Virus record (IMG/VR): IMGVR_UViG_2660238524_000011
From: a virus
Taxonomy: Duplodnaviria > Heunggongvirae > Uroviricota > Caudoviricetes
Reading direction: 5' to 3' (one strand)
DNA length: 29,277 bases
The position numbers and the translations under genes are program-made. This document shows, in pieces, positions 812 to 15,555 of the stretch. Every line of letters begins with the position of its first letter. Position 1 is the stretch's first letter. The notes beneath the pieces were generated by a model. That model made no database searches and had not been told where the DNA came from. It was given only the letters and a program-made list of their open reading frames with translations.

Positions 812-812
812 A

Positions 813-1019
813 TCATCTCCTTTTTTTCAGTCTGTCGGCAACAATGTCGGTTGCAGCTGGCAGGGTGACTGGCCAGAACAACATGACGGCGGTCATGTAC
901 AGGATGTAATGCGCGGTGTCGTAGTGCCTGCCATAGCCCAGGGAACGATGAAGTCTTGCGCTGCATGATCCTGCGTACATATACCAGAAAAGAAAACAGA
1001 CAATGGTTTCAGTAGTCAT
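813..1019 (-). CDS. small hydrophobic membrane protein (hypothetical)
   Basis: Track ORF 813..1175 trimmed to the internal ATG at 1019, which has a GGAGG RBS 7 nt upstream. Product begins MTTETIVCFLFWYMYAG, predicted transmembrane. Confidence 0.4.
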   Translation of the reverse strand: MTTETIVCFLFWYMYAGSCSARLHRSLGYGRHYDTAHYILYMTAVMLFWPVTLPAATDIVADRLKKRR

Positions 1020-1239
1020 TCTGAATACCTCCCCATTCGATATGAATATTACGGGCAGCAATGACAGGGTCGTTATTCCACCATGCACCTGACATGTATT
1101 TTTCAACCTGTTCGCGTCCGGCAATAACACCAATTGTGATCCCCGGCCTGACGTTCTTAAAAAAGGCGCGGGCAAAAAGGTATCTGGCAGATATTCGGCA
1201 GGCTTTTAATTTCCGGCTTTTACCTGATAGCGTAATCAT
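1009..1239 (-). CDS. hypothetical early protein (76 aa)
   Basis: GGAGG RBS upstream of ATG at 1239. Start overlaps the stop of the upstream gene (ATGA coupling); its stop overlaps the next start. Confidence 0.4.
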   Translation of the reverse strand: MITLSGKSRKLKACRISARYLFARAFFKNVRPGITIGVIAGREQVEKYMSGAWWNNDPVIAARNIHIEWGGIQNDY

Positions 1240-1919
1240 CTGGCCTCCAGTTTCTGTTGTTCCTGCCCACTGACCGGGCGGTGCAGTCTGACGTTCTGCC
1301 CTTCACGAAACCCCGCATAGCGCGAGGCGTCGCCATTGCGGCTTCTTCCCGGTTTACGCGCCCTGGTGGTTTGCGTCTGCGGGTATTTATGTTCCAGCCA
1401 CTGCTGCATCAGTTCACGCTCATCATCGGTCAGGGCAAAGGACTGTATTTCACTGATAACGGCCAGCACCCAGCCTTCGGCAAACTGGTCTCCACGGCTG
1501 GTGCGGGTGGCGGTTTTTATTCTTTTGTTCTGTGCACTGATATACTGCTGACGCGCCTTTTTCAGCTGACGGGCCAGCACTTCCCAGGTGTATGCAGCCA
1601 GTGCCGCACGTTCCCGGTTGCCGTAGAACCCCACAGACGGATGCGTGCCGGGGTGAATGATGGAGTTAACACCAAATACCTCGCGGATGATGTTCATCAG
1701 GCCCAGCATGTAGCGCGGTGGACGGAGACTGCCTGTCGGCCAGTAGTGACTGATGGTTTCATCAATATCACTCATAGCAATGTCGGAATGTGTGATGCCG
1801 TGAACATCCATCAGTTTACGGGCTCGGCGCAGTGCCAGAGCGGCCTCGTGCGGGTTGCCGGATGCGGCCAGCGCCAGCAACTTTTTCAGTTTCTCAATGT
1901 GTTTATTCTGGTCTGTCAT
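1236..1919 (-). CDS. DUF2786-like domain protein
   Basis: Motif LLALAASGNPHEAALALRRARKLMDVHGI matches my recollection of DUF2786. The ATG at 1919 has a GGAGA RBS and overlaps the upstream stop (ATGA); the track start at 1955 lacks an RBS. Confidence 0.5.
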   Translation of the reverse strand: MTDQNKHIEKLKKLLALAASGNPHEAALALRRARKLMDVHGITHSDIAMSDIDETISHYWPTGSLRPPRYMLGLMNIIREVFGVNSIIHPGTHPSVGFYGNRERAALAAYTWEVLARQLKKARQQYISAQNKRIKTATRTSRGDQFAEGWVLAVISEIQSFALTDDERELMQQWLEHKYPQTQTTRARKPGRSRNGDASRYAGFREGQNVRLHRPVSGQEQQKLEAR

Positions 1920-2131
1920 TGTTCTGTATCTCCGGTATTTTTCTGCCGTTTCCATGCCCGGACAGCGTCGGACAGCTCTTTCAGGCTGTATGCTGCTTTA
2001 AGCTTTTCCCATAACCACTGTGTTGTTATGTGCATCAGCAGGGCAGCCAGGGCTGCCCCCGCACTGAGGCATGTCGCCAGGCCAGTAAGAATCAGTGTCC
2101 ATGCGGTGATTTCCCTGAGTATGTCAGCCAT
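1916..2131 (-). CDS. small membrane protein (71 aa, hypothetical)
   Basis: GGGAGG RBS 6 nt upstream of ATG at 2131. Hydrophobic core ITAWTLILTGLATCLSAGAALAALL. Confidence 0.45.
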   Translation of the reverse strand: MADILREITAWTLILTGLATCLSAGAALAALLMHITTQWLWEKLKAAYSLKELSDAVRAWKRQKNTGDTEQ

Positions 2132-2145
2132 TGAATGCCTCCCGG

Positions 2146-2442
2146 TTACTCGTTCGTGTAAATCACGCCCAGTCGTGCAGCCAGACGTTCCAGTTTTTTC
2201 TGTTTGTGGAAGTCAATCAGCCGGTCCATCCCCTGAAGGCGCAGTTGCTCTGTCATGATTTCCACGTCTGCCAGCTCTGCCGCGAGGTCACTTTCGCTGC
2301 CCTGTCCGTTCAGGTTGCGGGCGGCACTGGCCGCCAGTTCAGCGGCCTCTTCTGCCAGTTTCAGGGCCTGTGCGTCCGGCCCGAAACGCTGCAGGGCCAG
2401 ACGGTAGAGGGCGGTGCGGGTGAGTTCGGTGTTTCGTGTCAT
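2146..2442 (-). CDS. hypothetical early protein (98 aa)
   Basis: Co-oriented and tightly spaced within the early operon; Ala/Leu-rich helical protein. Confidence 0.4.
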   Translation of the reverse strand: MTRNTELTRTALYRLALQRFGPDAQALKLAEEAAELAASAARNLNGQGSESDLAAELADVEIMTEQLRLQGMDRLIDFHKQKKLERLAARLGVIYTNE

Positions 2443-2451
2443 GCCGCGCCC

Positions 2452-2724
2452 TCAGTGCTTCCGGCTGACGGTGATGTGCAGGCCGCCTTCTGCAGTGGTT
2501 TCCATCCGGTACGGCACCTCATGCTCTGCCGTGTGGGTGAGTGTGTTCATCAGTACCTGCAGGGCAGCCTCCTTTCCGTTGGTCGCCACAATGGCCTGTG
2601 TGGCCATGCTGATTAGCGCCGTCAGGACGTGCTTCACATCGGTGAGGTCGCGGCATTCACACTCGTTGACATAGTGTTCAACAAGGGTTCGGGTGCGCTG
2701 TCGTGCTTCCTGTGGGGTAATCAT
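2452..2724 (-). CDS. hypothetical early protein (90 aa)
   Basis: Co-oriented and tightly spaced; start overlaps the stop of 2721..2915 (ATGA). Confidence 0.4.
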   Translation of the reverse strand: MITPQEARQRTRTLVEHYVNECECRDLTDVKHVLTALISMATQAIVATNGKEAALQVLMNTLTHTAEHEVPYRMETTAEGGLHITVSRKH

Positions 2725-2915
2725 TGCGAGTCCTCCCTGTCAGGGCGGGAGAATTCCATGACGGGCACGTCTGCCGAAAAATGCTGGCTGCAGTACGGGC
2801 AGACCAGGGTGACGCGTACCGCAGGGATGTGGTATTTACCGGACATCACGGCGATGGCGCTGTGAAAACGCAGGGCTGTTATATCCCTCTCGCACTGAAT
2901 ACATTTAAATATCAT
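2721..2915 (-). CDS. small zinc-ribbon protein (CxxC...CxxC)
   Basis: 64 aa with paired Cys motifs (CIQC ... CPYC). GAGGAG RBS upstream of ATG at 2915. Confidence 0.45.
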   Translation of the reverse strand: MIFKCIQCERDITALRFHSAIAVMSGKYHIPAVRVTLVCPYCSQHFSADVPVMEFSRPDREDSQ

Positions 2916-3012
2916 GATTTAATTCTCCTCTGTTTCCGGCGTGCAGAAGCCCGCGGCGCTGACGTCGGAATAAAAAAGAAAATGTTTTTATTAAATAATT
3001 AACGTGGTGTGT

Positions 3013-3543
3013 TTACTGCACATCCTGCTCAAAAGGAATTATTGAAAAATCCTCAATGTCGCTTTTAATGGAAATACCGGGAATATTTTTCACGGCCTCT
3101 TTTTCATTCAGGATAGCGTCTTTATTTATTTCCTCTTTTACACGAATAAAGCGCTCAAGCCCCAGACGTCTCAGTAATTCAATAACATTATCCGCCCCAC
3201 GGATACTGACTGATGGCGGACGGTTTCGCCACTGCACCTCGCCGGTGGTGAGGTTAGCGAACTTCACCTTCCCGTTGCCGGTCAGTTCATCACGGTGTGC
3301 CTCACACCATGTCTGAATACCGGACTGCAGTTCGGCCATGCGTTTTTTCAGGCTCTCGGTGAGCGGGGCATAACGTGCGGTGATATCGCCAATGGCGTCA
3401 TTCATTTCTGTTTCAGCCCTGACCAGTTCACGTTGTGCGTCACCGAGTAGTCTGATTCCCTCAATGACCTCTTCACGTGTCCCCGGCACCCAGAGTGCTG
3501 CTGCGGCCTTGATACGTTTTGCACCTTTTGTACTTTTTGCCAT
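3013..3543 (-). CDS. gam: Gam-like host-nuclease inhibitor (Mu Gam/Ku-like DNA end-binding protein)
   Basis: 176 aa; N-terminus MAKSTKGAKRIKAAAA and C-terminus GISIKSDIEDFSIIPFEQ closely resemble Mu Gam as I recall it. Confidence 0.8.
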   Translation of the reverse strand: MAKSTKGAKRIKAAAALWVPGTREEVIEGIRLLGDAQRELVRAETEMNDAIGDITARYAPLTESLKKRMAELQSGIQTWCEAHRDELTGNGKVKFANLTTGEVQWRNRPPSVSIRGADNVIELLRRLGLERFIRVKEEINKDAILNEKEAVKNIPGISIKSDIEDFSIIPFEQDVQ

Positions 3544-3570
3544 TTTTTATGATTTCTCCAGTTGTGCTGA

Positions 3571-3840
3571 TTACCACAAAGATTCCGGCCACACGACGCG
3601 ACAGCCGTGCAGTTCGAAAACGCCCTGACGGAAATATCCCCTGTGGTCATGTCCGGTATACAGATAACAGGCCTTTCCCTGCTCAAGCATGCGCATGCAA
3701 TGCGCACTCCGGGAAACGCGGATGACAGGTTTGTTACCCCTGATGGTGATGCTTTGTACATCCGTGTTCGTCGCCTTAAGCGCCATAATGGCTGACTGCA
3801 CTTTGCTGATTTGCTGGTTGATACCTGTGGTGGATTTCAT
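3571..3840 (-). CDS. hypothetical early protein at the position of Mu kil (89 aa)
   Basis: Start lies 2 nt past the B-like stop (TAATAATG context). Function assigned by position only. Confidence 0.35.
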   Translation of the reverse strand: MKSTTGINQQISKVQSAIMALKATNTDVQSITIRGNKPVIRVSRSAHCMRMLEQGKACYLYTGHDHRGYFRQGVFELHGCRVVWPESLW

Positions 3841-3842
3841 TA

Positions 3843-5009
3843 TTAAACCCCTTTGACAACGTCAGCGTTGACCTGTGGAACCCCGATTTCAGCGGCCAGA
3901 TTCATGGCGGCTATTACCAGGTTACTGACGGCCAGCGGATACAGCAGGCTGACCATATTTTTACGGTGACTTCCCGGATTGCTCAGGCGGGCACGTATGG
4001 CATCCACTGCACCGGCGTCCATAATGTCCGTCAGCTGTTTACCGGCCCGTTGCAGTTTGAACGTCAGAAATTCTTCAAGGTTATTGTCCAGAGGCAGAAG
4101 TTCGACCACCTCACAGCGCTGAACGACTTCACGGACTTCCATATTGCGTTCAGACAGTTTTGTCGCCAGTTCCGGCTGGCCAATCAGCACGATGGACAGC
4201 AGTTTTTTGAAACCGGACTCCAGCTCAAAAAAGCGTTTGAGGTGTTTCAGTGTCGGAATGGGCAGACTGTGGGCCTCCTCAATCACCAGAACGTGGCTGA
4301 ACCCCGCCTGGCTGCTGTCTTTCAGGACGCGATGCAACTGGCGAAAACGGGCGTCCTGACTGCGTCTGATGCTTTCCAGTGGTGCGATGGTACTGATAAT
4401 GGCTTCGGCAATAGCTGCTGCCTTCAGGGTTTTCCCTTTCACATCGTTGTCTTCCATAGCGATGATGTATGGCTCGATAACAATTACCGGCGCATTCTCG
4501 CGGTTGATACGTTCAGTCAGGTCGCGGCGCAGCGTGGATTTACCCGCACCGGACTCACCGATGACGGCCATAAACCCACCATGACGGGCTGTCTGGTACA
4601 GCGCCTCACGCACGTAGCGAATGTCCGGGGTGGTGAACACATCATCAGAACCCTGCATGGCTTCGTCGGCGAACGGGTCACGGAAAAGACCAAACGCTTT
4701 TTTGGTTGCTGGAAATAACACCTGTTTTTTGAGTAACATATTCTCTTCCTCACTGAGGCTCGTTTTATCTGTGGTACCCGCTGTACGGGGCGTGGCCGCG
4801 CCCTGTACAGCATCAAAACTCTTCGTTGTATCAATCCCCTGACTTTCCAGCCAGGACGCAAGACGCCGGCGCACTTCTCCGGGGCTGGTGCGGGGCCACG
4901 CGTTATGATTCACAATCTGGGCCAGCGTGGCCTCAGAAACATCGACAGCTCTCGCCACCACCGCCTGTGGAATACGGGCCTCTTTCAGTTGCTGCTTCAG
5001 TACCAGCAT
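3843..5009 (-). CDS. transposition helper ATPase (MuB-like, AAA+ P-loop)
   Basis: Walker A VIGESGAGKST; located immediately downstream of the transposase. GAGGAGG RBS 5 nt upstream of ATG at 5009; the track start at 5048 would overlap the A gene by 29 nt. Confidence 0.7.
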   Translation of the reverse strand: MLVLKQQLKEARIPQAVVARAVDVSEATLAQIVNHNAWPRTSPGEVRRRLASWLESQGIDTTKSFDAVQGAATPRTAGTTDKTSLSEEENMLLKKQVLFPATKKAFGLFRDPFADEAMQGSDDVFTTPDIRYVREALYQTARHGGFMAVIGESGAGKSTLRRDLTERINRENAPVIVIEPYIIAMEDNDVKGKTLKAAAIAEAIISTIAPLESIRRSQDARFRQLHRVLKDSSQAGFSHVLVIEEAHSLPIPTLKHLKRFFELESGFKKLLSIVLIGQPELATKLSERNMEVREVVQRCEVVELLPLDNNLEEFLTFKLQRAGKQLTDIMDAGAVDAIRARLSNPGSHRKNMVSLLYPLAVSNLVIAAMNLAAEIGVPQVNADVVKGV

Positions 5010-5019
5010 GTTTCCCTCC

Positions 5020-6789
5020 TCAGTTGCCGTTAACAATGCTGATAACACTGCTGCGGGCCGGTGTGGTCAGCGTGGCCATGACTTCATCCAGTGCGGCTTC
5101 CGGTACGCCGTCCGGGTACTGTGCCGTTAACTGGCGGTAATGTTCCGGCGTCCAGGTAAGGCCGTCGGCGCTGAACTTATCGCGCAGGGCTTTCGCGGCC
5201 TCCACATGAGTCATGGGACGTTGTTCAGTGCGCGGCCCGCGTACGTCAGAGGCCTGACCACGCTTCGGCATATAGGCCGGAAGTGTGGTGTCGTCGATAT
5301 GTTTATACGGGTCAAGCCGCCCGCCGAACGGCAGCGCCTTCGCCTTGCGTGCGGCGGCTGCATCTGCGGCGTTGTCTGTACCGGTAACCAGCGCTTCGGT
5401 TTCTTTTGCCGCCATCTGTGCCGGGGTTTCCGGCAGGGCTTTGTAACTTTCGCCAAATACCGCCGCGCCTTCAGCAAAGCCAAACTCGTTCTTTCTGACC
5501 TCTTCGACCAGGAAGAACGTCTCGTGGCCGTCCTCACCGGTCAGAACCACCTGTGCCACATCGCTGCGCCATGGGTTACGGGTAATCATCAGTTTTTCAC
5601 CAACCAGTACGCCCGGTACCGTTGATACGTCAAATTCAGTGCCCCGGAACGAGACACGAAGTTTTGGCGTGACTTTGCGGAGTTCTGGTGCCGCCACAGC
5701 CAGTTCACGACATACCTCAACGGAAGGCGCTTTTTTCAGCTGCTCAGCAGTAATCTTCAGCCAGATATCCGTGCGGGTTTTACCGTGGCGGCTGTGAACA
5801 GCCGTGGCGTTAAAGTGGCTGCGCCATTTCGCGGCCAGCGCGTTGAGTTCTTCCAGACTGTGAACCGGCCGGAACTTCAGACCCGGCTCCAGCTTGCGTT
5901 CGATAATGTCACGCGCCTTTTCCACCTGTCCGGTGGCGCGGGCGTTATGCGGCTTGTGCGCTATCAGGTCGATGCCCAGTGAGCGGCACATGTTTTTCGT
6001 CATACCCGCGGTGTTTGCCGAGCCGGGGTCGAGATAGAGTATTTTCGGCACGCCGTGCAGCACGTCTGCGCCGCCACGCTCCTGCATGGCGTTGATAAGC
6101 ACAGAACACAGGTTCTCACCTGATTCCGCGCCCGTCACATACTCAACGTAAATCCAGCCGCTGGCATGGTCGGTAATCTCGTAACTCCACACGCGGTCAC
6201 TGGCGATACGGGCAAGGTTAGCGGGCTTGTTCTTGTAGAACTTCGCGCTGTCCATCACCTGCAGCCCTTTATGTCCATTGCTCAGGTAGTAAAGCGTGCA
6301 GAGTGAGGCGTCAATCTGCCAGACATGATTGGGATGCAGACTGGCCACTTCGGTATGTGGTGCAGGGGCATCCAGTTGTTCCGGGTGCAGGCCATAGTTA
6401 CGCAGAGCACGGCTGATGGCATCTTCAGACAACGGGAAAAACTCACTGGTGGTTTCATCTGTTCTGCCTGCGGTGATAAAGCCGTTAGCCCGCAGGGTTT
6501 CCACTGCATCTGCGATGGAATAGAGACGCTTACCGTTCTTGCGGGTGGCCTCACGCAGTGTGGCAGATATCAGCGCGGCTTCGTCGCGGGTCAGGGCGCT
6601 GCGCCCGGCATCGGCGCGTTTTTTGCGTTTATCAGTCACAGATACCTCCTTCAGCCTGCGCAGCAGAGTGGCGCGGGACATGCCAAGTTCAGCACAGGCA
6701 GCGTCGTATATTGCACCGCGTTTACCATGCCCCGCGTCACGTGCCGCGCGGGCGACATAAACCAGTCGTTCAGTCAGGGCAGCATTCAT
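5020..6789 (-). CDS. DDE transposase (Mu A-like, RNase H-fold integrase core)
   Basis: 589 aa with N-terminal HTH region and candidate DDE residues in HVWQIDAS, LYLDPGSANT and HNARATGQVE. Confidence 0.8.
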   Translation of the reverse strand: MNAALTERLVYVARAARDAGHGKRGAIYDAACAELGMSRATLLRRLKEVSVTDKRKKRADAGRSALTRDEAALISATLREATRKNGKRLYSIADAVETLRANGFITAGRTDETTSEFFPLSEDAISRALRNYGLHPEQLDAPAPHTEVASLHPNHVWQIDASLCTLYYLSNGHKGLQVMDSAKFYKNKPANLARIASDRVWSYEITDHASGWIYVEYVTGAESGENLCSVLINAMQERGGADVLHGVPKILYLDPGSANTAGMTKNMCRSLGIDLIAHKPHNARATGQVEKARDIIERKLEPGLKFRPVHSLEELNALAAKWRSHFNATAVHSRHGKTRTDIWLKITAEQLKKAPSVEVCRELAVAAPELRKVTPKLRVSFRGTEFDVSTVPGVLVGEKLMITRNPWRSDVAQVVLTGEDGHETFFLVEEVRKNEFGFAEGAAVFGESYKALPETPAQMAAKETEALVTGTDNAADAAAARKAKALPFGGRLDPYKHIDDTTLPAYMPKRGQASDVRGPRTEQRPMTHVEAAKALRDKFSADGLTWTPEHYRQLTAQYPDGVPEAALDEVMATLTTPARSSVISIVNGN

Positions 6790-6792
6790 TGG

Positions 6793-7707
6793 TTATGCCT
6801 CCAGCCCGTTAATCTGTGGCGTCGGCTCAGTCAGCCATGAAGGCGCTGCATTGCCTGTTGGCTCGTCCGGCAGGTCAAATGTGGAGCGCAGGCTACGCGC
6901 TGTGCTTTCCAGTTGACAGACCAGGCCTGCCATGAAGTCTCTGGGGGTATCAATCATGTTTTCAGCACAATATGCGCACAGCGTCTCAAAAGCGCTGGAC
7001 AGTCGGACGGCGATAGCAGATTCCGCCTCAACCGCTAATGCTGTTACTTCCGCCCGCAGCTTCTTAACCTCCTCATCAGGCTCAGGCGGCTGAATACGGG
7101 ATTTCTTCTCCAGTCTGGTGGAGAGTGAATCTATTTTTTCATTTTTGTCGGCGAGTACGCGCTGTTGTGCTGCGTTGGTTTCGCGCGCTTCGCGCAGGGC
7201 CTGACGCAATTCACGTACTGACATGCGATCAACGTCGTCAAGCGTCAGGCCGGCAACTGTGCCGCCGTCGGCCAATTCATCAAGTTCTTCATTATCCAGA
7301 ACCATCAGGTCGTACAGTTTGGCTTTCCCCAAAACGCTCAACGTTGAGCGTTTTGTTGGCTCATCACCTTCTCCCAAAAACTTCATACTGGCTTGCATCA
7401 TGCGGCGAGCAACTTGTGGTGCAAGTCCGAGTTCATTTTCTAAAATGTTTGTAAAATCACCGTGTGGCTCATTTTCTTTTAAGATGATCAGCCGCTTACC
7501 CGCTTCCAGCATAGATTCAGCACTCTGCGCCATATAAAAACGTGCTTCGTGAACAATGCGATCACGTTCATAAGGCAGTCCATCACCAAACTGCTGCATA
7601 ATTTCCATGCGATGCTGTGTCATAGCGTTCAAATTGACATTGATGTTATCTGACAGCGGAACCTCAACATTCAGTTCAGTGTTAACGGGTGATTTGGTGC
7701 GTCCCAT
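6793..7707 (-). CDS. conserved Mu-like early protein (304 aa, coiled-coil; copy 1)
   Basis: Immediately upstream of the A gene; paralog at 11101..12021 (about 85% identity by eye). Acidic and coiled-coil rich. Confidence 0.55.
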   Translation of the reverse strand: MGRTKSPVNTELNVEVPLSDNINVNLNAMTQHRMEIMQQFGDGLPYERDRIVHEARFYMAQSAESMLEAGKRLIILKENEPHGDFTNILENELGLAPQVARRMMQASMKFLGEGDEPTKRSTLSVLGKAKLYDLMVLDNEELDELADGGTVAGLTLDDVDRMSVRELRQALREARETNAAQQRVLADKNEKIDSLSTRLEKKSRIQPPEPDEEVKKLRAEVTALAVEAESAIAVRLSSAFETLCAYCAENMIDTPRDFMAGLVCQLESTARSLRSTFDLPDEPTGNAAPSWLTEPTPQINGLEA

Positions 7708-7717
7708 TGATTACTCC

Positions 7718-8026
7718 TTACAAACGACTACCTGAAATAACTCGTTGGTTGATTTCGTTAATACGATCCTGTGCACGCGCCATCTCGTGACTGTGAGCCA
7801 TGGCGATCTGTAGTAACTGGATTCCCGGTGCGAAACGTCCGTTCTCTAATTTCATGGCCAGTCCCTCTTCAATAAGGGTATTAAGTGCTCGATTGATATT
7901 CGCCGGGGACTCCCCCAGGGCTGATGCCAGTTCACCGTTAGAAACACCGTTCAGAGCATGACCGCGTAGAGCTTTGAGTACACGTAGGATGCGGGTCCCA
8001 GAACTGGAAATATTTACTTTACTCAT
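7718..8026 (-). CDS. winged-helix HTH DNA-binding protein (copy 1)
   Basis: Track ORF 7718..8089 trimmed to the ATG at 8026 (MSKVNISSSGTRILRVLKALRGH) by analogy with copy 2. HTH-like segment NGELASALGESPANINRALNTLIEEG. Confidence 0.5.
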   Translation of the reverse strand: MSKVNISSSGTRILRVLKALRGHALNGVSNGELASALGESPANINRALNTLIEEGLAMKLENGRFAPGIQLLQIAMAHSHEMARAQDRINEINQRVISGSRL

Positions 8027-8078
8027 GTCACATTTCCATTTTTGCAATATGTGATAACCTGTTGCATATGTGGAAAAT

Positions 8079-8267
8079 TTATGCCGCATTTGACGTGGGT
8101 TTTAATCCCAGTTTTACGGCAATTTCATGGGCTTTGCCGTAACGAGCTTTGGTCTGTCCATTGAGAACACGATAGACCTCATTGCGGCTGTAGCCGTGTT
8201 CTTCGGCCCAGCGGGTAAACGTGATACCACGCTGACGGAAGAGATTTTTAACTTGTTCGGAAGTCAT
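8079..8267 (-). CDS. Ner-like small DNA-binding regulator (first gene of early operon, copy 1)
   Basis: 62 aa with HTH segment GITFTRWAEEHGYSRNEVYRVLNG. Divergent from the repressor gene and first gene of the leftward operon. Confidence 0.55.
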   Translation of the reverse strand: MTSEQVKNLFRQRGITFTRWAEEHGYSRNEVYRVLNGQTKARYGKAHEIAVKLGLKPTSNAA

Positions 8268-8353
8268 TGTTGTCTCCTTTGTTGATGCAATGATGTTTGT
8301 TTTATATGTGATAGATTATGAGAACTATTGTTCTCATTGTCAATGAGGTTTAT
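8268..8353. promoter_or_regulatory. divergent promoter/operator region 1, with palindrome ATGAGAAC-N4-GTTCTCAT at 8318-8337
   Basis: Perfect 8-bp inverted repeat with 4-bp spacer read directly from the sequence, between divergent Ner-like and repressor genes. TTGATG at 8282-8287 is a possible -35 element. Confidence 0.5.
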
Positions 8354-8779
8354 GTGAATTTTGATTCTCTTTGCGCGTCGCGGTTCAAAGCTGAGCGTTC
8401 GCGGTTATCACTCAAGCAGGCTGAAGTAGCAGCCCTTTGTGGCGTTTCAAGAGAAATGTGGGGGAAATATGAACGAGGGGTTGCTGTTCCCGGAGGTGAG
8501 TTACTTGCAGCCTTTGCAAGAATTGGGGCCAATGTACAGTTCATTCTTACCGGGGAGTCATCAGGTATAACTTTATCACGTGATGAAATGGAGTTACTGC
8601 AGCACTACCGGCAGGCACCATTACAGGTCAAAGGTTCAGTTTTGTCGGCCTTGACTACTGGCTCCTCCAGAGAACGGGCGGAACAGGTTATTCATGGAGA
8701 TGTTCTGGGGAATGTTATCAAAGGTAACGTAACCATAGGAACAGGTGGAATAATGAACAAAAATACCAAGAGAAGATGA
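8318..8779 (+). CDS. XRE/Cro-CI-type HTH repressor (immunity repressor 1)
   Basis: HTH LSLKQAEVAALCGVSREMWGKYERG. The track ATG at 8318 lies inside the operator palindrome and lacks an RBS; in-frame GTG at 8354 preceded by GAGG is an alternative start. Stop overlaps the next start (ATGA). Confidence 0.65.
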   Translation: MRTIVLIVNEVYVNFDSLCASRFKAERSRLSLKQAEVAALCGVSREMWGKYERGVAVPGGELLAAFARIGANVQFILTGESSGITLSRDEMELLQHYRQAPLQVKGSVLSALTTGSSRERAEQVIHGDVLGNVIKGNVTIGTGGIMNKNTKRR

Positions 8780-9762
8780 GTAAAGAGAAGCAAACAGTTA
8801 ACGGGGATGTGGGTAACGTTGTCAGCGGTGATGTTACCATTCATAACTATTCTGCTGACATACTTCCTTCGGCCCAGCAACCAATTTCGTTGCTGCAAAA
8901 ACGCGATTTACACAGATTGATGGATGAATTGGTTGATCTGGGGGAAAGTAAGCGCGAGCTATGGATGACGATCCACACGAAACTTAATACCAAAACAGTT
9001 AATGAAATGACTGCGGCTGATTATCATGGTGCGGTTGAGATCCTTCAGAGATATGCACAACAGATCCAGAATATGAAGGACTGTAATCTTCTGGTCAGCA
9101 AAATAATGGCGCTTACTGACCCTGGGTATCGTCTTGACCGTGACAGATACTGTCTGAAGCATTTCGGTACAACCCATCTTAAAGGCCTAGACAAAGAGCA
9201 GTTGCAGGCTGTGTTTGGTTATTTTGATGATCTGCTGAATATTCGTGATGAGAGTAAAACTCTATCACCTCCATCGGAAAGCGGTGCAAAATCAGTCGCA
9301 ACTGTACCAACCAGAAGCCGGAAGCCTCATGTAGTAGTGTTGGGGGGAGTGTTAGTTCTTGTAGCAATATTTTTCGTGGGAATGATTGTGTTCGCTGGTA
9401 AATGGGGAAATGCCAAAGCAGTAGCTTCTACTGAAACCAGCGTTTTTAACATTAAAACCAACGATAAAATAATAGAAGATTCCATCCCCGCACTGCGCAG
9501 CATGTTTCCAGGGTTAAATAAGTACTCAGATGATTTCCATTCGGTTTCAAGCTACAAGCAAAAAACGGGCTGGCATACCCTTAAATTTACTGTATCAGCA
9601 AAGGCATCCGTCCCCGAAAATTATAGTGTTAAGGGCAAGGTTTGTTACATTAACATAAGCCCTGATGGTAGTTATGCTCGGGTTTTGACTGCTCCATGTC
9701 GTTCACTGCTACTTGATCAGCAAAGCACTCCTGACAGTAAATACCGTTTTATTCTTAAATAG
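8776..9762 (+). CDS. membrane-anchored protein of unknown function (328 aa)
   Basis: Single hydrophobic segment VVVLGGVLVLVAIFFVGMIVFAG between a roughly 165-aa N-terminal domain and a roughly 120-aa C-terminal domain. Visibly AT-rich relative to neighbours. Confidence 0.55.
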   Translation: MSKEKQTVNGDVGNVVSGDVTIHNYSADILPSAQQPISLLQKRDLHRLMDELVDLGESKRELWMTIHTKLNTKTVNEMTAADYHGAVEILQRYAQQIQNMKDCNLLVSKIMALTDPGYRLDRDRYCLKHFGTTHLKGLDKEQLQAVFGYFDDLLNIRDESKTLSPPSESGAKSVATVPTRSRKPHVVVLGGVLVLVAIFFVGMIVFAGKWGNAKAVASTETSVFNIKTNDKIIEDSIPALRSMFPGLNKYSDDFHSVSSYKQKTGWHTLKFTVSAKASVPENYSVKGKVCYINISPDGSYARVLTAPCRSLLLDQQSTPDSKYRFILK

Positions 9763-9843
9763 AAAATAACAGCTGAATTACCATGGGATCAGAAAAAAGA
9801 CAAAGGCGGCATCATGCTGCGTTCTGAAATTTTAATGTAAAAG

Positions 9844-10434
9844 GTGATGAACATGGCAGGGATTCAGGTTATCGCAGGAAGTTTTCCTAAAGGGTGGGCA
9901 AGCATGGGGTTCGGTACCATCGTGTTTGCCAAAAAACCAAAACAAGGCTTTCCTGAAAATATTGTATTAAATCTGAAAGAAGAGCTTTTATCGATTGAAC
10001 TTGCGGATAGTGAAGAGGAAAGCCGTATAGGTAAGGCGGCAGGCGCAGGTTTGCTTGGTGGATTAATCTTTGGTGGTGCAGGGTTGGTCATTGGAGGTTT
10101 GCTTGGTGCGGCGGACAAGACGAAAAAAACTATCACTTTTAAGGCAATGTTTACGGGAAATAGGTTACTTCTGGCTAAAACAGATTCAAAAACTTTTGTA
10201 AAACTTCAGTCAATTGCTGCTGATAATGCCCATAACGCATCTGTAATCAACATGAAGCAAACTAACAGGGGCGATGTTTCTTCTCGTAAACAACTAACAG
10301 AAAATCCACAGCAGCAAGACTTACCTGCGCCCGCTACAACAGTAAAAATGACTGCCAAAGATAAGTTAGAATCGGCTCTTGGGCTGGGAATCATCGTTAT
10401 AGCTGTTTGGGCAATAATACACTTCTTTTTTTAG
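9844..10434 (+). CDS. glycine-zipper membrane protein of unknown function
   Basis: Gly-rich segment GAGLLGGLIFGGAGLVIGGLLGAA and C-terminal hydrophobic helix. Likely start is the ATG at 9853, preceded by AAGG. Confidence 0.5.
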   Translation: MMNMAGIQVIAGSFPKGWASMGFGTIVFAKKPKQGFPENIVLNLKEELLSIELADSEEESRIGKAAGAGLLGGLIFGGAGLVIGGLLGAADKTKKTITFKAMFTGNRLLLAKTDSKTFVKLQSIAADNAHNASVINMKQTNRGDVSSRKQLTENPQQQDLPAPATTVKMTAKDKLESALGLGIIVIAVWAIIHFFF

Positions 10435-10435
10435 T

Positions 10436-10460
10436 GCAGCCCTTCAGGGCTGTTTCTGTT
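10436..10460 (+). terminator. putative intrinsic terminator
   Basis: Hairpin GCAGCCC-ttca-GGGCTG (stem one side one base longer) followed by TTTCTGTT, directly after the stop of 9844..10434. Confidence 0.5.
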
Positions 10461-10471
10461 CAGGAGGTATC

Positions 10472-10768
10472 TTAAGGATTATCCGGGGCGTTTTCCTGTT
10501 TGCCGTACTTCGGAGACGAACAACATTCTGTTGGCTGACCGGTGAGTTTACGTAACTCCTTCATGAGCAGCTCCTGATCGTAAACTGTCATCAGTGCCGC
10601 AATGGTGGCATGCAGTGCATCGGGCAGTATCCAGGGACGCAGCAGAGTGGCGCGGGACATGCCAAGTTCAGCACAGGCAGCGTCGTATATTGCACCGCGT
10701 TTACCATGCCCCGCGTCACGTGCCGCGCGGGCTGTTTCAACCAGTTTTTCAGTCAGTGCCGGGGTCAT
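10472..10768 (-). pseudogene. chimeric in-frame fusion: transposase N-terminus (44 aa) joined to an internal fragment of the P-loop gene
   Basis: 10638-10732 is identical to 6659-6753 (A gene 5' region). 10493-10636 matches 14970-15113 with 3 mismatches in 144 bp. Product is MTPALTEKL...SRATLL followed by RPWILPDALHATIAALM. Confidence 0.55.
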
Positions 10769-10783
10769 AGCTTGTCTTCCCTG

Positions 10784-11101
10784 TTATCCGATTCTGGCGG
10801 CAATTTTTCTGGCGAGGTCGCACAGTGTTTCGCCATCGCAGGTTTTCACCACGGTATTTACCGGTTGCGGTGCAACTACCGGGCGTAATGCTGACTGATT
10901 CTGCAGACGTCTTATCTGCTGCATCAGCATCACCTCCATCGTCAGTACAAACGGGTGCGTCTCCTGTGCGGGTACGCAGATTTCACCGGAAGGGGTCACC
11001 ACGCGGAAACCCTGCACCATCTCCGGCAGCAGATTACACAGTGCGTGCCCCAGTGCCTCCGGGCTGTCCATCAGGGTATTTTGTGTGTTATTCGTATTCA
11101 T
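10784..11101 (-). CDS. hypothetical protein (105 aa), present only in control module 2
   Basis: Start abuts the stop of 11101..12021. No counterpart between the 304-aa gene and A in copy 1. Confidence 0.35.
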   Translation of the reverse strand: MNTNNTQNTLMDSPEALGHALCNLLPEMVQGFRVVTPSGEICVPAQETHPFVLTMEVMLMQQIRRLQNQSALRPVVAPQPVNTVVKTCDGETLCDLARKIAARIG

Positions 11102-12021
11102 TACTGCATATCCTCCGGTCGGTTGATTTCAGGTTCCGGTTCGGTCAGCCAGGCGGGGGCATCGTTACCCGATGGAGCGGCCTCAAGGTCAAACGTCTCA
11201 CGTAATGCATGAACACTGCGTTCAATCTGGCAGACCAGACCGGCCATGAAATCTCTGGGGGTATCGATCATGTTTTTGGTGCAGTATTCACACAGGGTCT
11301 CAAAAACACTGGACAGCCGGACGGCGATAGCCGATTCGGCCTCAACCGCTAATGCCGTCACTTCCGCCCGCAATTTTTTCAGTTCTTCGTCTGGCGGCGG
11401 AGGTTGCAGGCGCGATTTCTTCTCCAGTTTTGTGGCCAGTTCGTTGATTTTTTCGTCCTTTCCGGCAAGCACCTGTTGCTGAGCTGCGTTGGTTTCGCGC
11501 GCTTCACGCAGGGCGGCCTTCAGTTCGCGGCTGGTCATGCGATCAATATCATCAAGCGTTGCACCGGCGACGGTTCCACCATCAGCTAATGCGTCGAGTT
11601 CTTCGTCATCCAGAACCATCAGTTCATATAACTTGGTTTTTCCCAAAACGCTCAGCGCTGAGCGTTTTGGCTGTTCATCTCCATTGCCGAGAAATTTCAC
11701 GCTGGCCTGCATCATGCGACGAGCTACCTGTGGTGCTAATCCGAGGTCGTTTTCCAGAATATTTGTGAAATCACCATGCGGTTCATTTTCTTTTAAGATG
11801 ATCAGCCGCTTACCCGCTTCCAACATAGATTCAGCACTCTGCGCCATATAAAAACGTGCTTCGTGAACGATGCGTTCACGTTCATAAGGCAGTCCATCAC
11901 CAAACTGCTGCATGATCTCCATGCGATGCTGTGTCATGGCATTCAGGCTGACGTTGAGATCATCCGACAGCGGTACATCGGCGTTCAGTTCAGTGTTAAT
12001 CGGTGATTTGGTACGTCCCAT
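11101..12021 (-). CDS. conserved Mu-like early protein (306 aa; copy 2)
   Basis: Paralog of 6793..7707. Confidence 0.55.
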   Translation of the reverse strand: MGRTKSPINTELNADVPLSDDLNVSLNAMTQHRMEIMQQFGDGLPYERERIVHEARFYMAQSAESMLEAGKRLIILKENEPHGDFTNILENDLGLAPQVARRMMQASVKFLGNGDEQPKRSALSVLGKTKLYELMVLDDEELDALADGGTVAGATLDDIDRMTSRELKAALREARETNAAQQQVLAGKDEKINELATKLEKKSRLQPPPPDEELKKLRAEVTALAVEAESAIAVRLSSVFETLCEYCTKNMIDTPRDFMAGLVCQIERSVHALRETFDLEAAPSGNDAPAWLTEPEPEINRPEDMQ

Positions 12022-12031
12022 TGATTACTCC

Positions 12032-12340
12032 TTACAAACGACTACCTGAAATGACACGTTGGTTAATTTCGTTAATACGATCCTGTGCACGTGCCATCTC
12101 GTTACTGTGGGCCATGGCGATCTGCAGTAACTGGATGCCCGGTGCAAAACGTCCGTTCTCCAGTTTCAGAGCCAGCCCTTCTTCAATGAGGGTGTTGAGT
12201 GCCCGGTTGATGTTTGCCGGTGACTCGTGCAGTGCTGTCGCCAGTTCACCGTTAGAAATACCGTTCAGGGCATGACCGCGCAGCGCTTTGAGTACCCGGA
12301 GGATGCGACTGCCGGAGCTTGAAACATTCGTCTTACTCAT
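12032..12340 (-). CDS. winged-helix HTH DNA-binding protein (copy 2)
   Basis: Paralog of 7718..8026. Start at the ATG at 12340 (MSK...) with AGAGG RBS 7 nt upstream. Confidence 0.5.
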   Translation of the reverse strand: MSKTNVSSSGSRILRVLKALRGHALNGISNGELATALHESPANINRALNTLIEEGLALKLENGRFAPGIQLLQIAMAHSNEMARAQDRINEINQRVISGSRL

Positions 12341-12392
12341 CTGCATACCTCTTTTGCGATATGTGATAACCTTTTACAAAGACTCAAAATAT

Positions 12393-12581
12393 TTAGGCCG
12401 CCTGAGCTGTTGATTTCAGTCCCAACTTCACGGCGATTTCATGGGATTTACCGTAACGGGCTTTGGTCTGCCCGTTGAGAACGCGGTATACCTCATTGCG
12501 GTTGTAGCCGTTTTCTTCTGCCCAGCGGGTGAAAGTGATCCCGCGCTGGCGGAAGAGAGCTTTGACTTGTTCTGCAGTCAT
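12393..12581 (-). CDS. Ner-like small DNA-binding regulator (copy 2)
   Basis: 62 aa, about 87% identical to 8079..8267. Confidence 0.55.
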   Translation of the reverse strand: MTAEQVKALFRQRGITFTRWAEENGYNRNEVYRVLNGQTKARYGKSHEIAVKLGLKSTAQAA

Positions 12582-12674
12582 CGTTGTCTCCTTTGTTGAT
12601 GCAATGATGTTTGCCTTATATGTGTTAGATTATTGCTCATAATTATGAGCATATCAAGATAGAGATTCACTTTT
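12582..12674. promoter_or_regulatory. divergent promoter/operator region 2, with 18-bp palindrome TGCTCATAATTATGAGCA at 12634-12651
   Basis: Perfect palindrome read from the sequence; a third half-site TATGAGCA overlaps the repressor 2 start codon at 12674-12681. Confidence 0.5.
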
Positions 12675-13031
12675 ATGAGCAAAGATATAGGAGAGCGCGT
12701 TATTTCTGTGAGGAAGAAAGCAGGGTTGAACCAGAGAGAATTTGCAGCTCGTTTAGGTATTTCTAATGGTGGTATCAGTCAGATTGAAAATGGAAAGGCG
12801 ATGCCTGGAGGGGAGTTTCTGTTAAAGATGCATCAAGAGTTTAATGTTGATGTAAATTGGTTGCTCACTGGAATGAGCACAGATGGTATGACTAGAAACC
12901 AGAATCAAATTTCCCCAGAAAAACAAAAACTAATAGATACTTTTGACGACATGACACCAGACCAACAACGCTCATTTCTTGAGATTGGGCGATTCTATAC
13001 TCAGCCAAAACCAGGAAAAATCGCAGGCTGA
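12675..13031 (+). CDS. XRE-type HTH repressor (immunity repressor 2)
   Basis: HTH LNQREFAARLGISNGGISQIENG. Unrelated to repressor 1 outside the HTH core. Confidence 0.65.
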   Translation: MSKDIGERVISVRKKAGLNQREFAARLGISNGGISQIENGKAMPGGEFLLKMHQEFNVDVNWLLTGMSTDGMTRNQNQISPEKQKLIDTFDDMTPDQQRSFLEIGRFYTQPKPGKIAG

Positions 13032-13116
13032 TACTGACCCGGACACAAAGGACAGGTGGTTGATCTGGATGCTTTCAGAAAACATCGCCAGTGACATAGT
13101 GGAAGTTGTTTGGTTT

Positions 13117-13148
13117 ACCGGAAAGCATTGTGCTTTCCGGTTTTGTTT
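13117..13148 (+). terminator. putative intrinsic terminator
   Basis: 10-bp stem ACCGGAAAGC/GCTTTCCGGT with 5-nt loop, followed by TTTTGTTT. Downstream of repressor 2 and abutting the Dam stop codon. Confidence 0.55.
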
Positions 13149-13910
13149 CAGAAGTTGCAGATTAGCAGTTCACGGCGCGGCGTGGGTTTACCCGCCAGAC
13201 TGTAGTTGATATTCACTGTCTGTATGTTCAGTCCAGTGAACACCTCGCGCATCTGCGGGATGTCGTTCACCGAAATTATCATTTTTCCTCTGATGCACCG
13301 GGCCAGCTCTGCCAGCCGCGAGTAGTTCCCTTCAGGAAAATCCACACCATAGCCTTCCGTACCCAGGTACGGTGGGTCGCAGTAGAACAGCGTGTGCGGA
13401 CGATCATAACGCTCAATGCACTGTTGCCAGTCCATGTGTTCTATGACTGTTCTGGAAAGCCGCAGGTGTGCCGCTGACAGTTCTTCTTCAATACGTAGCA
13501 GGTTGAAGCGTGGCGGGGATGTGGTGGAGGTACCGAAGCTGTGCTCTGCCACCTTGCCGCCAAACGCCTGCTTCTGAAGGTAGTAGAACCGTGCCGCACG
13601 CTGGATATCCGTCAGTGTTTCTTCCGGGGTGATCTGCAGCCATTTGTAGATCTGACGGCTGACCAGCGCCCATTTGAACTGGCGGACAAATTCTTCCAGG
13701 TGATGCTTTACCACCCGGTACAGATTCACCAGTTCACCGTTGATATCATTGATGACTTCGATCTTGCCGGGTGTCTTAAGAAAATAGAGCGCTGCTGCCC
13801 CACAAAACGGCTCCACATAACATTCATGCGCCGGAAACAGCGGCAGAATGTGTTTTGCAAGGCGGCGTTTGCCACCAATCCACGGCACGATGGGTAATGT
13901 CTGCATTTTC
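13148..13910 (-). CDS. dam: DNA adenine methyltransferase (Dam-like, D12-class N6-MTase)
   Basis: DPPY catalytic motif (FYCDPPYLG) and N-terminal SAM-binding region (IVPWIGGKRR ... VEPFCGAAA). Track ORF trimmed to the ATG at 13910 (MKMQTLPIVPW). Confidence 0.75.
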
Positions 13911-14102
13911 ATAATCTGCAAGCCTTTTACAATTATTAAAAAATATGGCAGTCTGGTCAGGTCTCGCGAGACTGACTGAACCTTGGTCGGCTCACAGCGC
14001 ATTCCTGTGGGGCGATGACCAGCCCGGCTTTCGGGTGCCGGGCTGGTCGTTCTTTCATGATGCGGCAGGGATGGCGGGATTTCTGTTAATGTGGTTTAGG
14101 GA

Positions 14103-14318
14103 TTATCCGGGGCGATTTTCTGACCTTATCCGGTCCAGGGCATAAGTAATACCTTCTGCAAAAACAGAAGTATCAAACTGCTTTTGTATTCCCTGAAAAT
14201 GAAAAGCGGCACGACAGACACTCAGTTCTCCGCGGTATAACCGGATAATATCTTCCAGAACATTGTTCACTGCTTCAGCACGGCGCTGATGTTCTGTTAA
14301 CGTTAATCGGGGATTCAT
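14103..14318 (-). CDS. hypothetical protein (71 aa)
   Basis: Strong AAGGAG RBS 7 nt upstream of the ATG at 14318. Confidence 0.45.
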   Translation of the reverse strand: MNPRLTLTEHQRRAEAVNNVLEDIIRLYRGELSVCRAAFHFQGIQKQFDTSVFAEGITYALDRIRSENRPG

Positions 14319-14721
14319 GATGCACTCCTTAAATGATGATTTTTATGTACTCACCGGCAAAATATTCTGCCGATTACTGAACACGCATCCGGCACCTCAG
14401 GTTTTGATTTATTCTGGTTTTTTCGATATCCCGGACCAGGTTGATCACGACCAGAAAAAGTGCCGGTGTTTTATTGATACGCTGATATGGCTTCGGGATA
14501 ACAGCTATATTCGTTACTCTCAGTTGCTGGCTGTGGGAGCGGCTGATGTCGTCCTCACGGAAAAAACGCTCTGTCTGCTCAATGCCATGCCGACCTTTCT
14601 GCAGCCCCGGCCCGTACCATTTAAAGAGTCACTTCTGGATGCAGTAAAAACCGGTGAAAATGCAGTCATCGCTGAATGCGTATCCCGGATTATGCGTTAC
14701 GTGTTTAATGAACGTAAGTGA
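14317..14721 (+). CDS. hypothetical protein (134 aa)
   Basis: ORF fills the 378-nt gap between minus-strand genes. Its start codon overlaps the divergent start of 14103..14318 (CATGATG); 3' end converges on and overlaps the P-loop gene. Weak GGGGA RBS. Confidence 0.35.
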   Translation: MMHSLNDDFYVLTGKIFCRLLNTHPAPQVLIYSGFFDIPDQVDHDQKKCRCFIDTLIWLRDNSYIRYSQLLAVGAADVVLTEKTLCLLNAMPTFLQPRPVPFKESLLDAVKTGENAVIAECVSRIMRYVFNERK

Positions 14722-15425
14722 GGTTTATCCGCTGTCTGCATAATCCCGATAGCCAGTGCGAGGGGAAGTAATTCCGGGGAAACTCTTTCAAACAGCGATG
14801 CCCATTCTCCTCTCGCCATCACTCTGTCCAGCCCGCCCTCCAGTTGCATTTCAGCAATCTTCCTGATTTCCCGGAACAACGCCGCTTTGATCTCTTCATG
14901 CTCAGCTTTATTTTCCGGTGTCAGAAGGTATTCGTCGAAGAACCGGGGAGGCTGGTTAATCGGGATGTGTTCCTGTTTGCCGTACTTCGGGGACGAACAA
15001 CATTCTGTTGACTGACCAGTGAGTTTACGTAACTCCTTCATGAGCAGCTCCTGATCGTAAACTGTCATCAGTGCCGCAATGGTGGCATGCAGTGCATCGG
15101 GCAGTATCCAGGGTTGCCGGCCCGTGGGGCATATAACATCCAGCAGCTCATTCGTCCGACAGATACGCTCCTCGCCGTATGACAACAGGCCCTGTCCCGT
15201 GTATTCCTCCAGCCTGATCACTGTGCCAGCCCGTGGTTTCTGCCATGTGCTCAGATCATCCCCACTCATACGGCGCTCACCGTCCACGTCTGCGGCGTCG
15301 ACAATGACGCTGTTTCCGAATTCCTGTTTCACCACTTCCTCTATTCGCGCCAGTACGTAACTTTTACCGCTGCCCACAGGACCGGACACGGTGACAGTGA
15401 TGACCGGATTCAGTGTCTGCGTCAT
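14697..15425 (-). CDS. P-loop NTPase-like protein of unknown function (242 aa)
   Basis: N-terminal Walker A-like SGPVGSGKSY. GAGGAG RBS 8 nt upstream of ATG at 15425. Confidence 0.5.
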   Translation of the reverse strand: MTQTLNPVITVTVSGPVGSGKSYVLARIEEVVKQEFGNSVIVDAADVDGERRMSGDDLSTWQKPRAGTVIRLEEYTGQGLLSYGEERICRTNELLDVICPTGRQPWILPDALHATIAALMTVYDQELLMKELRKLTGQSTECCSSPKYGKQEHIPINQPPRFFDEYLLTPENKAEHEEIKAALFREIRKIAEMQLEGGLDRVMARGEWASLFERVSPELLPLALAIGIMQTADKPHLRSLNT

Positions 15426-15555
15426 ATCGTATTCTCCTCTGTGAATAATTCATCGTTTATCCTGCACATCCCGTATCCCCGGCTCTCTTAACGCGCTTTA
15501 AAATCCTTCGCGCCCTGTATTTGTGATGCTGTCTCCACCAGATAAGGAGACACAC

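Follow-up and report, generated by a model that had tools for sequence, protein, structure and literature searches.

Does a short sequence that recurs in both early-control modules of a transposable prophage represent one regulatory motif in four copies, or different elements that share a core? The question is raised by a 29,277-nucleotide stretch of Caudoviricetes DNA (IMG/VR record IMGVR_UViG_2660238524_000011; the whole of this stretch is called the window here), which carries an Escherichia coli transposable (Mu-like) prophage of the BcepMu/B3-like type with two paralogous early-control modules at ~6659-8319 and ~10638-12633 that are 78-90% identical to each other. The closest named phage is Escherichia phage PhiKM (genus Bcepmuvirus). 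In each module the minus strand encodes, in order, a 62-amino-acid gp16-family helix-turn-helix (HTH) protein (gene ner below), a 102-amino-acid winged-helix protein, and a DUF3102 protein, followed further downstream in module 1 by a DDE transposase and its AAA+ partner, and the plus strand carries an XRE-type repressor divergent from gp16; repressors 1 and 2 are unrelated in sequence. The original prediction took four matches in these regions for a single motif, conserved while its surroundings had diverged, and proposed that it is either a binding site for the Ner-like or HTH protein or a shared promoter element.

We find that the motif is two different elements: site A, at the start point of the early promoter Pe, where conservation is weak, and site B, an 11-base copy after the gp16 gene that is probably a regulatory binding site. 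The reading we favor, at a probability of roughly 0.4, is that the two are separate cis-elements of an exchangeable module, made up of the Pe leader, the gp16 gene, and the spacer that follows it, within a BcepMu/B3-like lysis-lysogeny switch. With the same tentative weight, we assign both boxes to the gp16 module and take gp16, in preference to the winged-helix protein, as the likeliest binder. The sites and the spacers that hold site B are as follows.

8304-8313, minus strand: site A, copy 1, TATCACATAT, beginning 1 nt after the Pe -10 hexamer.
12618-12627, minus strand: site A, copy 2, the variant TAACACATAT, at the same position relative to the Pe -10.
8047-8057, minus strand: site B, copy 1, the 11-mer TTATCACATAT, 21-31 nt upstream of the winged-helix ATG; the 14-mer first noted spans 8047-8060.
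12359-12369, minus strand: site B, copy 2, the same 11-mer TTATCACATAT; the 14-mer spans 12359-12372.
8027-8078, minus strand: spacer between ner and the winged-helix gene, copy 1, 52 nt, with the conserved block GCAACAGGTTATCACATATTGCAAAAATGG and a ribosome-binding site (38 unique spacers aligned).
12341-12392, minus strand: the same spacer, copy 2, 52 nt, from the alignment of spacers.

The 14-base form ATATGTGATAACCT occurs exactly twice in the window, at 8047-8060 and 12359-12372 as had been reported, both times on the plus strand; in 100 dinucleotide-preserving shuffles it was never matched twice, even at 2 mismatches. With up to one mismatch, the 10-mer ATATGTGATA is found at four sites, namely 8047, 8304-8313 (exact), 12359, and, as ATATGTGTTA, 12618-12627; four such matches were reached by 3 of 100 shuffles. 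The variant copy in control region 2 does exist, one base away from the position first given for it (12617-12626). These four positions are not independent of one another, being a pair of sites, A upstream of ner and B in the interval from ner to the winged-helix gene, that each of the two modules carries, and the 11-mer of site B has no further copies in the window at up to one mismatch, site A apart. The description of diverged surroundings fits site B, which is identical at 14 of 14 positions between the copies with flanks matching at 5/13 and 10/18, but not site A, which lies in a block that is itself 48/53 identical.

How far each element is conserved was assessed with 141 related loci fetched from genomes and viral contigs, of which 31 unique modules with a winged-helix protein at least 84% identical formed the set for an invariance test (708 columns, 41.5% invariant). 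In this set TTATCACATAT is the longest invariant run, 11 bases against 5 for the next longest (P=0.025 by shuffling the invariance flags), and by this measure nothing in the control module is under tighter constraint than site B. The 11-mer occurs a single time in the complete PhiKM genome. Scanning IMG/VR with a 17-base pattern returned 60 matches, 50 of them in the ner/winged-helix context; the remaining 10 lie in unrelated low-GC phages and look like chance. In a second group (D; winged-helix protein ~75% identical) beside the main group (M), site B reads GTTTC(A/G)TATAT, a form present in 0 of 5,426 complete E. coli genomes, and distant lineages retain AACAG-N-KTWTCA together with an A-rich, Shine-Dalgarno end, the family-wide core being AACAG-N-KTWTCA ... 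GAAAAGRGG. Within the loci compared, site B is specific to enterobacterial lineages. Sites A and B have a common TCAYATA-type core in five sub-lineages. When carried into related prophages, the motif search that had been suggested generalizes strongly for site B and only as a degenerate box for site A, and the idea of four copies of one equally conserved motif has to be abandoned, site B being invariant and site A loosely conserved.

To which gene do the sites belong? The gene order of relatives is informative here. Two loci (L077 and L138) carry an insert that separates the winged-helix gene from ner; site B remains directly after ner, and the winged-helix gene is translationally coupled to the inserted gene. 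In three others (L047, L126, and L134) a gene for a protein of 182-184 amino acids lies between Pe and ner, and in L047 the Pe leader and site A remain with Pe and site B remains after ner. A further ~25 loci (L024, L028, and others) have a winged-helix protein 91-93% identical, with the identical recognition helix SPANINRALNTLIEEG, combined with another Cro analogue of 76 amino acids, whose gene overlaps the winged-helix start by ATGA. In L028, which was examined in detail, no site B is found within 3.3 kb even at 2 mismatches, and its Pe (TTGACA-16-TACAAT) is followed by neither a CACA box nor a homologous leader; the whole Pe-leader/gp16/spacer block is replaced in this sister group (L028 1208-1504, and the ~25 similar loci). 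By eye, the 76-amino-acid protein is closer to Mu Ner than gp16 is. Lastly, L070 combines a D-type winged-helix protein with a main-group site B. Given the block replacement, the insertions, and the mixed L070 type, the gp16 gene moves as a unit with site B and with the Pe leader that contains site A, and on these comparisons the three form one exchangeable module. The positions of the boxes, their conservation, and their linkage to the module are read directly from the loci.

The same loci bear on the possibility that site B is an autoregulatory operator of the winged-helix protein, which carries an IclR-type HTH. The site does lie 21-31 nt upstream of that gene's start in most members, and the protein is a conserved DNA-binding protein by prediction. 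The loss of the site within 3.3 kb in loci that keep nearly the same protein and the same recognition helix, together with its linkage to ner when another gene intervenes, nevertheless makes the winged-helix protein a poor candidate for the binder, and L070 pairs a D-type protein with a main-group site; we consider an operator of this kind very improbable. The proposal of a site for the Ner-like or HTH protein can accordingly be retained for site B only in its first half, where it is plausible by association with the gp16-type module, and its second half is disfavored.

Site A is best understood from the promoter beside it. A consensus scan for -35 and -10 hexamers with a spacer of 16-18 nt finds one strong sigma-70 promoter per control region, on the minus strand, and relatives show a Pe architecture like that of the window.

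8315-8343, minus strand: Pe, copy 1, TTGACA (8343-8338), 17 nt, CATAAT (8320-8315), 11/12 consensus matches.
12629-12657, minus strand: Pe, copy 2, TTGATA, 17 nt, AATAAT, 10/12 consensus matches.
8268-8314, minus strand: Pe leader, copy 1, CTATCACATATAAAACAAACATCATTGCATCAACAAAGGAGACAACA, 48/53 identical to copy 2.
12582-12628, minus strand: Pe leader, copy 2, from the alignment with copy 1.
8320-8335, no strand assigned: palindrome GAGAACTATTGTTCTC in the Pe spacer, presumed operator of repressor 1, read in the sequence; inverted repeat 8311-8325 / 8330-8344.
12634-12651, no strand assigned: palindrome TGCTCATAATTATGAGCA in the Pe spacer, presumed operator of repressor 2, from an inverted-repeat search and reading.
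8318-8779, plus strand: XRE-type immunity repressor 1 (Pfam HTH_31/HTH_3), start codon uncertain.
12675-13031, plus strand: XRE-type immunity repressor 2 (Pfam HTH_3); the module alignment breaks down past the Pe -10.

Site A extends over the Pe discriminator and the predicted start point (~8307-8309) into the first transcribed bases. The notion of a shared promoter element holds for site A, which in both copies begins 1 nt after the Pe -10; at site B no sigma-70 two-hexamer promoter was found on either strand (window, L026, and L071), only a low-information extended -10-like pattern. Homology between the two copies stops at the Pe -10, with site A at its edge: up to this hexamer, starting from the ner ATG, they are 48/53 identical (91%), compared with 154/189 for the ner coding sequence, and beyond the -10 they match at only 17/52. 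Across relatives the site is degenerate (TAWCACAYAT; family form ATAAT-C-TA[T/A/C]CACA[C/T]ATAA), and only certain immunity types, few in number, have the exact 10-mer. Boxes of the CACA type that follow the Pe -10 are widespread, occurring in Burkholderia phage BcepMu, the Pseudomonas phages B3, Fc02, and JBD25, and many metagenome lineages, and CACA[ACT]A lies 5-10 nt after the -10 in 11 of 34 diverse leader representatives against 2.3 expected (maximum 7 in 500 shuffles). The plus strand of site A (TGTGATAGATT; TGTG(A/T)TAGATT) could supply the extended -10 of a repressor promoter overlapping Pe back to back, and overlapping promoters of this kind have been described for B3-family phages (PMC9936078).

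Relatives as distant as Pseudomonas phage B3, and many metagenome lineages, have a recognizable Pe leader. Within it (8272-8300 and 12586-12614, minus strand) lies GGCAAACATCATTGCATC, which has the form GCAACATCTTTGCAT in B3 and ATCTTTGCATCACAGGAG in metagenome lineages. The leader can form a small GCAA/UUGC hairpin, the stem of which is weakened in copy 1 of the window, and one leader sub-lineage has an apparently compensatory change (UACAA/UUGUA). Between the Pe hexamers, both palindromes are perfect and differ between the two copies, and at least 6 other palindromes occupy this position in relatives of other immunity types; these are presumed to be immunity-specific repressor operators. An additional half-site at 12673-12689 overlaps the start codon of repressor 2.

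If site B is not a promoter of the ordinary kind, it is conceivable that it acts in the mRNA instead, either as part of a portable translation-initiation region that serves any gene placed after ner (a G-free, A/U/C-rich enhancer or standby site) or as an RNase processing site that would uncouple ner from the transposase genes, with the likeness of A and B reflecting common ancestry or similar leader composition. Several observations agree with this. The conserved block is unbroken from GTAACAG to the Shine-Dalgarno sequence and serves a different downstream gene in L077, phages lacking the spacer couple the genes by ATGA overlap, both leaders fit TATCACAYAT-(1-3 nt)-GCAAA...AAGGRG-ATG, both tracts are free of G, and sub-lineages drift from one another yet are conserved internally. 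The RNA itself, however, gives no supported structure at site B, with minimum free energy z-scores of -0.09 to -0.55 and each homologue folding differently, no Rfam match at E <=1, and a test for a duplex between site B and the start region whose P values range from 0.01 to 0.6 and are significant only in one homologous family of start regions. Low-specificity enhancers leave 11 invariant bases unexplained, the conserved GAAAAGAGG of L138 is 25 nt away from the start codon and hence is not the ribosome-binding site of that gene, and the predicted Pe start falls within site A, so that the box is only partly in the RNA. Action in the mRNA is in our view possible but doubtful.

Several further candidates for site B were considered and rejected. 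A hairpin pairing the site with the start of the next gene (UCACAU/AUGUGA in some members) has registers that differ among members and z-scores near zero. Coding use is contradicted by indels and by the absence of three-base periodicity, and most relatives have a TAA that interrupts the 14-codon open reading frame of copy 1 (ATGCAACAGG...ACATGA), whose closing ATGA falls on the start of the winged-helix gene. Only copy 1 and near-identical relatives have a 20-nt inverted repeat (8033-8052 / 8057-8076), the arms of which, between 8033 and 8076, are 75% complementary, 4 nt apart, and centered on site B. Neither spacer contains an intrinsic terminator (GC-rich hairpin with a T run).

A second alternative places transcription on the other strand. 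Site B could be the core of a distal, repressor-direction promoter on the plus strand, with the extended -10 TGTGATAAY or TGATAACCT and a transcript running antisense through ner, likened to lambda PRE and to pC1 of Fc02, and site A would be the matching proximal repressor promoter (TGTGATAGATT). Strand-specific RNA sequencing of the gp16-type phage Fc02 shows that the lysogen repressor is transcribed from a distal pC1 located beyond ner and antisense to it, and the authors describe pC1 as conserved in the B3 family (PMC9936078). Both sites fit TGTG-A-TA-NNN-T on the plus strand, about half of the main group read TGTGATAAT, and the TG, the -11 A, and the -7 T (register TGA-WANNCT) are retained in groups M, D, and E as read from alignments. 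Against these stand the lack of a two-hexamer promoter noted above, with no -35 (window, L026, and L071); the better register in the window, which reads GATAAC and is without the -7 T; and the low information of the pattern, which any conserved block would appear to conserve. A terminator-like hairpin also lies on the plus strand inside ner in copy 2, and an antisense open reading frame of 52 amino acids is open in only 27 of 53 homologues. We regard a distal promoter at site B as unlikely.

The hairpin just mentioned is weak, has a T run, and lies antisense to ner within its coding sequence (12498-12511, plus strand; L026 1343-1330), with the T run broken in copy 1. The antisense frame is seen in both copies (8127-8285 and 12441-12599, plus strand) and recalls the antisense olg genes of Fc02; as a conserved gene it was rejected, being interrupted in 26 of 53 homologues and lacking a conserved start codon.

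It may also be asked whether site B is bound by a host factor or whether its likeness to site A is coincidental. TGTGA is a CRP half-site, and it is present here. The absence of the D-type site from the 5,426 complete E. coli genomes is consistent with the type of site tracking the host, and for coincidence there are the restriction of the exact site A 10-mer to a few immunity types and the 3 of 100 shuffles that reach four matches. The second CRP half-site is absent, though, and inspection for CRP, IHF, Fur, LexA, TyrR, PurR, CytR, a DnaA box, sigma-54, and lambda-type boxA/boxB gave no family-wide fit. Moreover, global regulators are conserved across Enterobacterales, so that a change of host would not force a change of site, and phages of the L028 type have lost both the A box and site B along with gp16. 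A host factor or coincidence is in our estimation improbable.

What kind of protein gp16 is has consequences for the reading we favor, and the four genes concerned are listed here.

8079-8267, minus strand: gp16-type "Ner-like" gene, copy 1, 62 amino acids (TIGR04111, phrog_925).
12393-12581, minus strand: gp16-type gene, copy 2, 62 amino acids, 87% identical to copy 1.
7718-8026, minus strand: winged-helix gene, copy 1, 102 amino acids, Pfam HTH_IclR 28.9 bits (cut-off 22), phrog_1368.
12032-12340, minus strand: winged-helix gene, copy 2, start set by homology at MSK, reading frame open to 12346, HTH_IclR 26.0 bits.

The gp16 protein of copy 1 matches TIGR04111 (BcepMu_gp16) with 94.4 bits against a cut-off of 34, over model positions 1-55 of 55. 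Against Pfam HTH_35 (PF13693; Mu Ner/Nlp), copy 2 reaches 17.9 bits, below the cut-off of 25, and copy 1 has no match, so that the label "Ner-like" is apt for the position of the gene and not for its family. An AlphaFold model (single-sequence, mean predicted local distance difference test score 81) shows a four-helix HTH fold, the nearest folds being 434 repressor/Cro, CapH, EnrR, and SinR, all at E >=0.18, and Ner structures are absent from its top 50 fold matches. A sequence search against solved structures gave nothing significant for gp16 or for the winged-helix protein. The latter scores above the HTH_IclR cut-off in both copies, which identifies an IclR-type N-terminal HTH; Pfam gives it HTH models only, the C-terminal effector-binding domain of IclR not being matched in its 102 amino acids, and it is by these matches a stand-alone winged helix (phrog_1368).

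It is the pattern of conservation that points toward gp16. Identity among gp16 proteins is 81-100% while the immunity palindromes differ between types, and because it is conserved across heteroimmune phages, gp16 cannot use the immunity-specific palindromes and needs another, conserved target. Site B has the core of site A in the same orientation and is co-inherited with gp16, and site A overlaps the region where the divergent repressor promoter must lie. From these patterns we infer both the identity of the binder and its effect. In such a scheme gp16 would recognize a common T(A/T)TCACAYAT-type box at both sites. Bound at site A, the protein would weaken Pe and stop the synthesis of repressor, in the manner of Cro and Ner. 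Bound at site B, it would restrain the winged-helix, DUF3102, and transposase genes downstream, either as a roadblock to transcription or by covering the stretch of DNA from which the translation-initiation region of the next gene is transcribed.

A number of observations weigh against this assignment. Variants of site B do not co-vary with gp16 or with the recognition helix of the winged-helix protein: the sites of the main group and group D differ, yet the gp16 recognition helix SRNEVYRVLNG is identical, as are the winged-helix recognition helices of groups M and D, and a divergent gp16 (69% identity; L023 and L070) retains a main-group site B. The main-group site B lacks dyad symmetry. Each of the two sites evolves independently of the other, A being much less conserved than B, and their spacing of 257-259 bp (~24.5 helical turns) places them out of phase for looping. 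The CACA motif was defined after the data had been seen, and its enrichment is for this reason supportive and not decisive. The distant gp16 phages B3, Fc02, and BcepMu are without any site B, and the linkage of site B to ner could be mere physical adjacency.

Placed beside known switches, the system takes the part that Cro or Ner plays in the switch of a temperate phage, although by the tests run gp16 is not of the Ner family. The operator of Mu Ner lies between the divergent promoters Pe and Pc; a literature search on this operator gave no paper. As with Mu Ner, the early operon opens with a gene for a small HTH protein, oriented away from the repressor gene, and this protein would be expected to bind near the overlapping promoters and to reduce the activity of both. 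The differences are that gp16 falls below the HTH_35 cut-off, that its fold is nearest 434 repressor/Cro, that no Mu-type 12-bp Ner repeats are seen here by inspection, and that the most conserved box is downstream of the gp16 gene, a feature for which we know of no report in Mu. The arrangement resembles that of lambda and 434 Cro on OR in the position of the Cro analogue and in the divergent promoters with operators between -35 and -10. Cro binds the operators of its own repressor and changes along with immunity, in contrast to gp16 and its boxes, which are constant here while repressors and palindromes change.

Site B is like pC1 of Fc02 (PMC9936078) and lambda PRE in lying just past the Cro/Ner gene, from where a transcript could run antisense into the repressor, and unlike them in that no promoter consensus is found at the site. 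The closest arrangement is that of BcepMu (Bcepmuvirus) and B3 (Beetrevirus), with the same order of repressor, Pe with a spacer palindrome, and gp16, a CACA-type box after the -10, and, in B3, a leader homologous to that of the window; unlike the window, both phages lack the spacer and the second box after gp16. A search of the full-text literature found no experimental study of the switch of this E. coli phage group, the Fc02 transcriptome paper alone being useful.

As gp16 and the boxes stay constant across differing repressors and operators, including those of the two adjacent modules of the window, gp16 could be independent of immunity. It may then be speculated, as an unlikely but consequential extension, that gp16 produced by one prophage upon induction acts in trans on the boxes of a heteroimmune co-resident prophage and that site B is a new Cro-type operator placed after its gene. 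If so, the repressor synthesis of a relative would be shut off and its transposase genes gated, with cross-induction or cross-silencing between co-resident transposable prophages, and site B would control entry into the transposition operon. Should gp16 not bind the boxes, the element suggests instead that transposase expression is controlled at translation or by an antisense promoter. In both cases we are dealing with a familiar type of regulatory element, a conserved cis-acting box of a lysis-lysogeny switch in phages, and not with a new system. What the analysis places is the early promoter with its immunity-specific operators, the most constrained 11-base element, and the block exchange of leader, gp16, and spacer.

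The 11-base element offers a precise target for footprinting and mutagenesis in very common E. coli prophages. Relatives of the prophage are present in 624 of 5,426 complete E. coli genomes, including ST131 strains (JJ1886); module 1 is found at >=95% identity in ~125 complete E. coli genomes and module 2 at >=99% identity in 391, JJ1886 among them.

The wider context of the two modules is of some interest in itself. Positions 1-15500 of the window form a hybrid or tandem of two related prophages joined near 10638-10773: a complete early arm with immunity region 1 spans 1 to ~10640, and a second prophage fragment begins within a truncated transposase N-terminus (10638-10773; 90% identical to 6659-6794) and carries on through ner-2, repressor-2, a Dam methylase, and late genes. 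A repeat links 10479-10653 with 14956-15130 at 91% identity, and among complete E. coli genomes none matches over 76% of 6000-15500 at a single location. The Dam-family adenine methyltransferase gene (13148-14002, minus strand; TIGR00571, 116 bits) adjoins repressor 2, as in PhiKM. Repressor 1 is followed by two genes whose functions are unknown, phrog_10002 (8776-9762, plus strand, 328 amino acids) and phrog_12025 (9844-10434, plus strand, 196 amino acids), which look like immunity-region cargo specific to module 1; the former overlaps the stop codon of repressor 1, and its protein is weakly similar to the N-terminal part of Flk.

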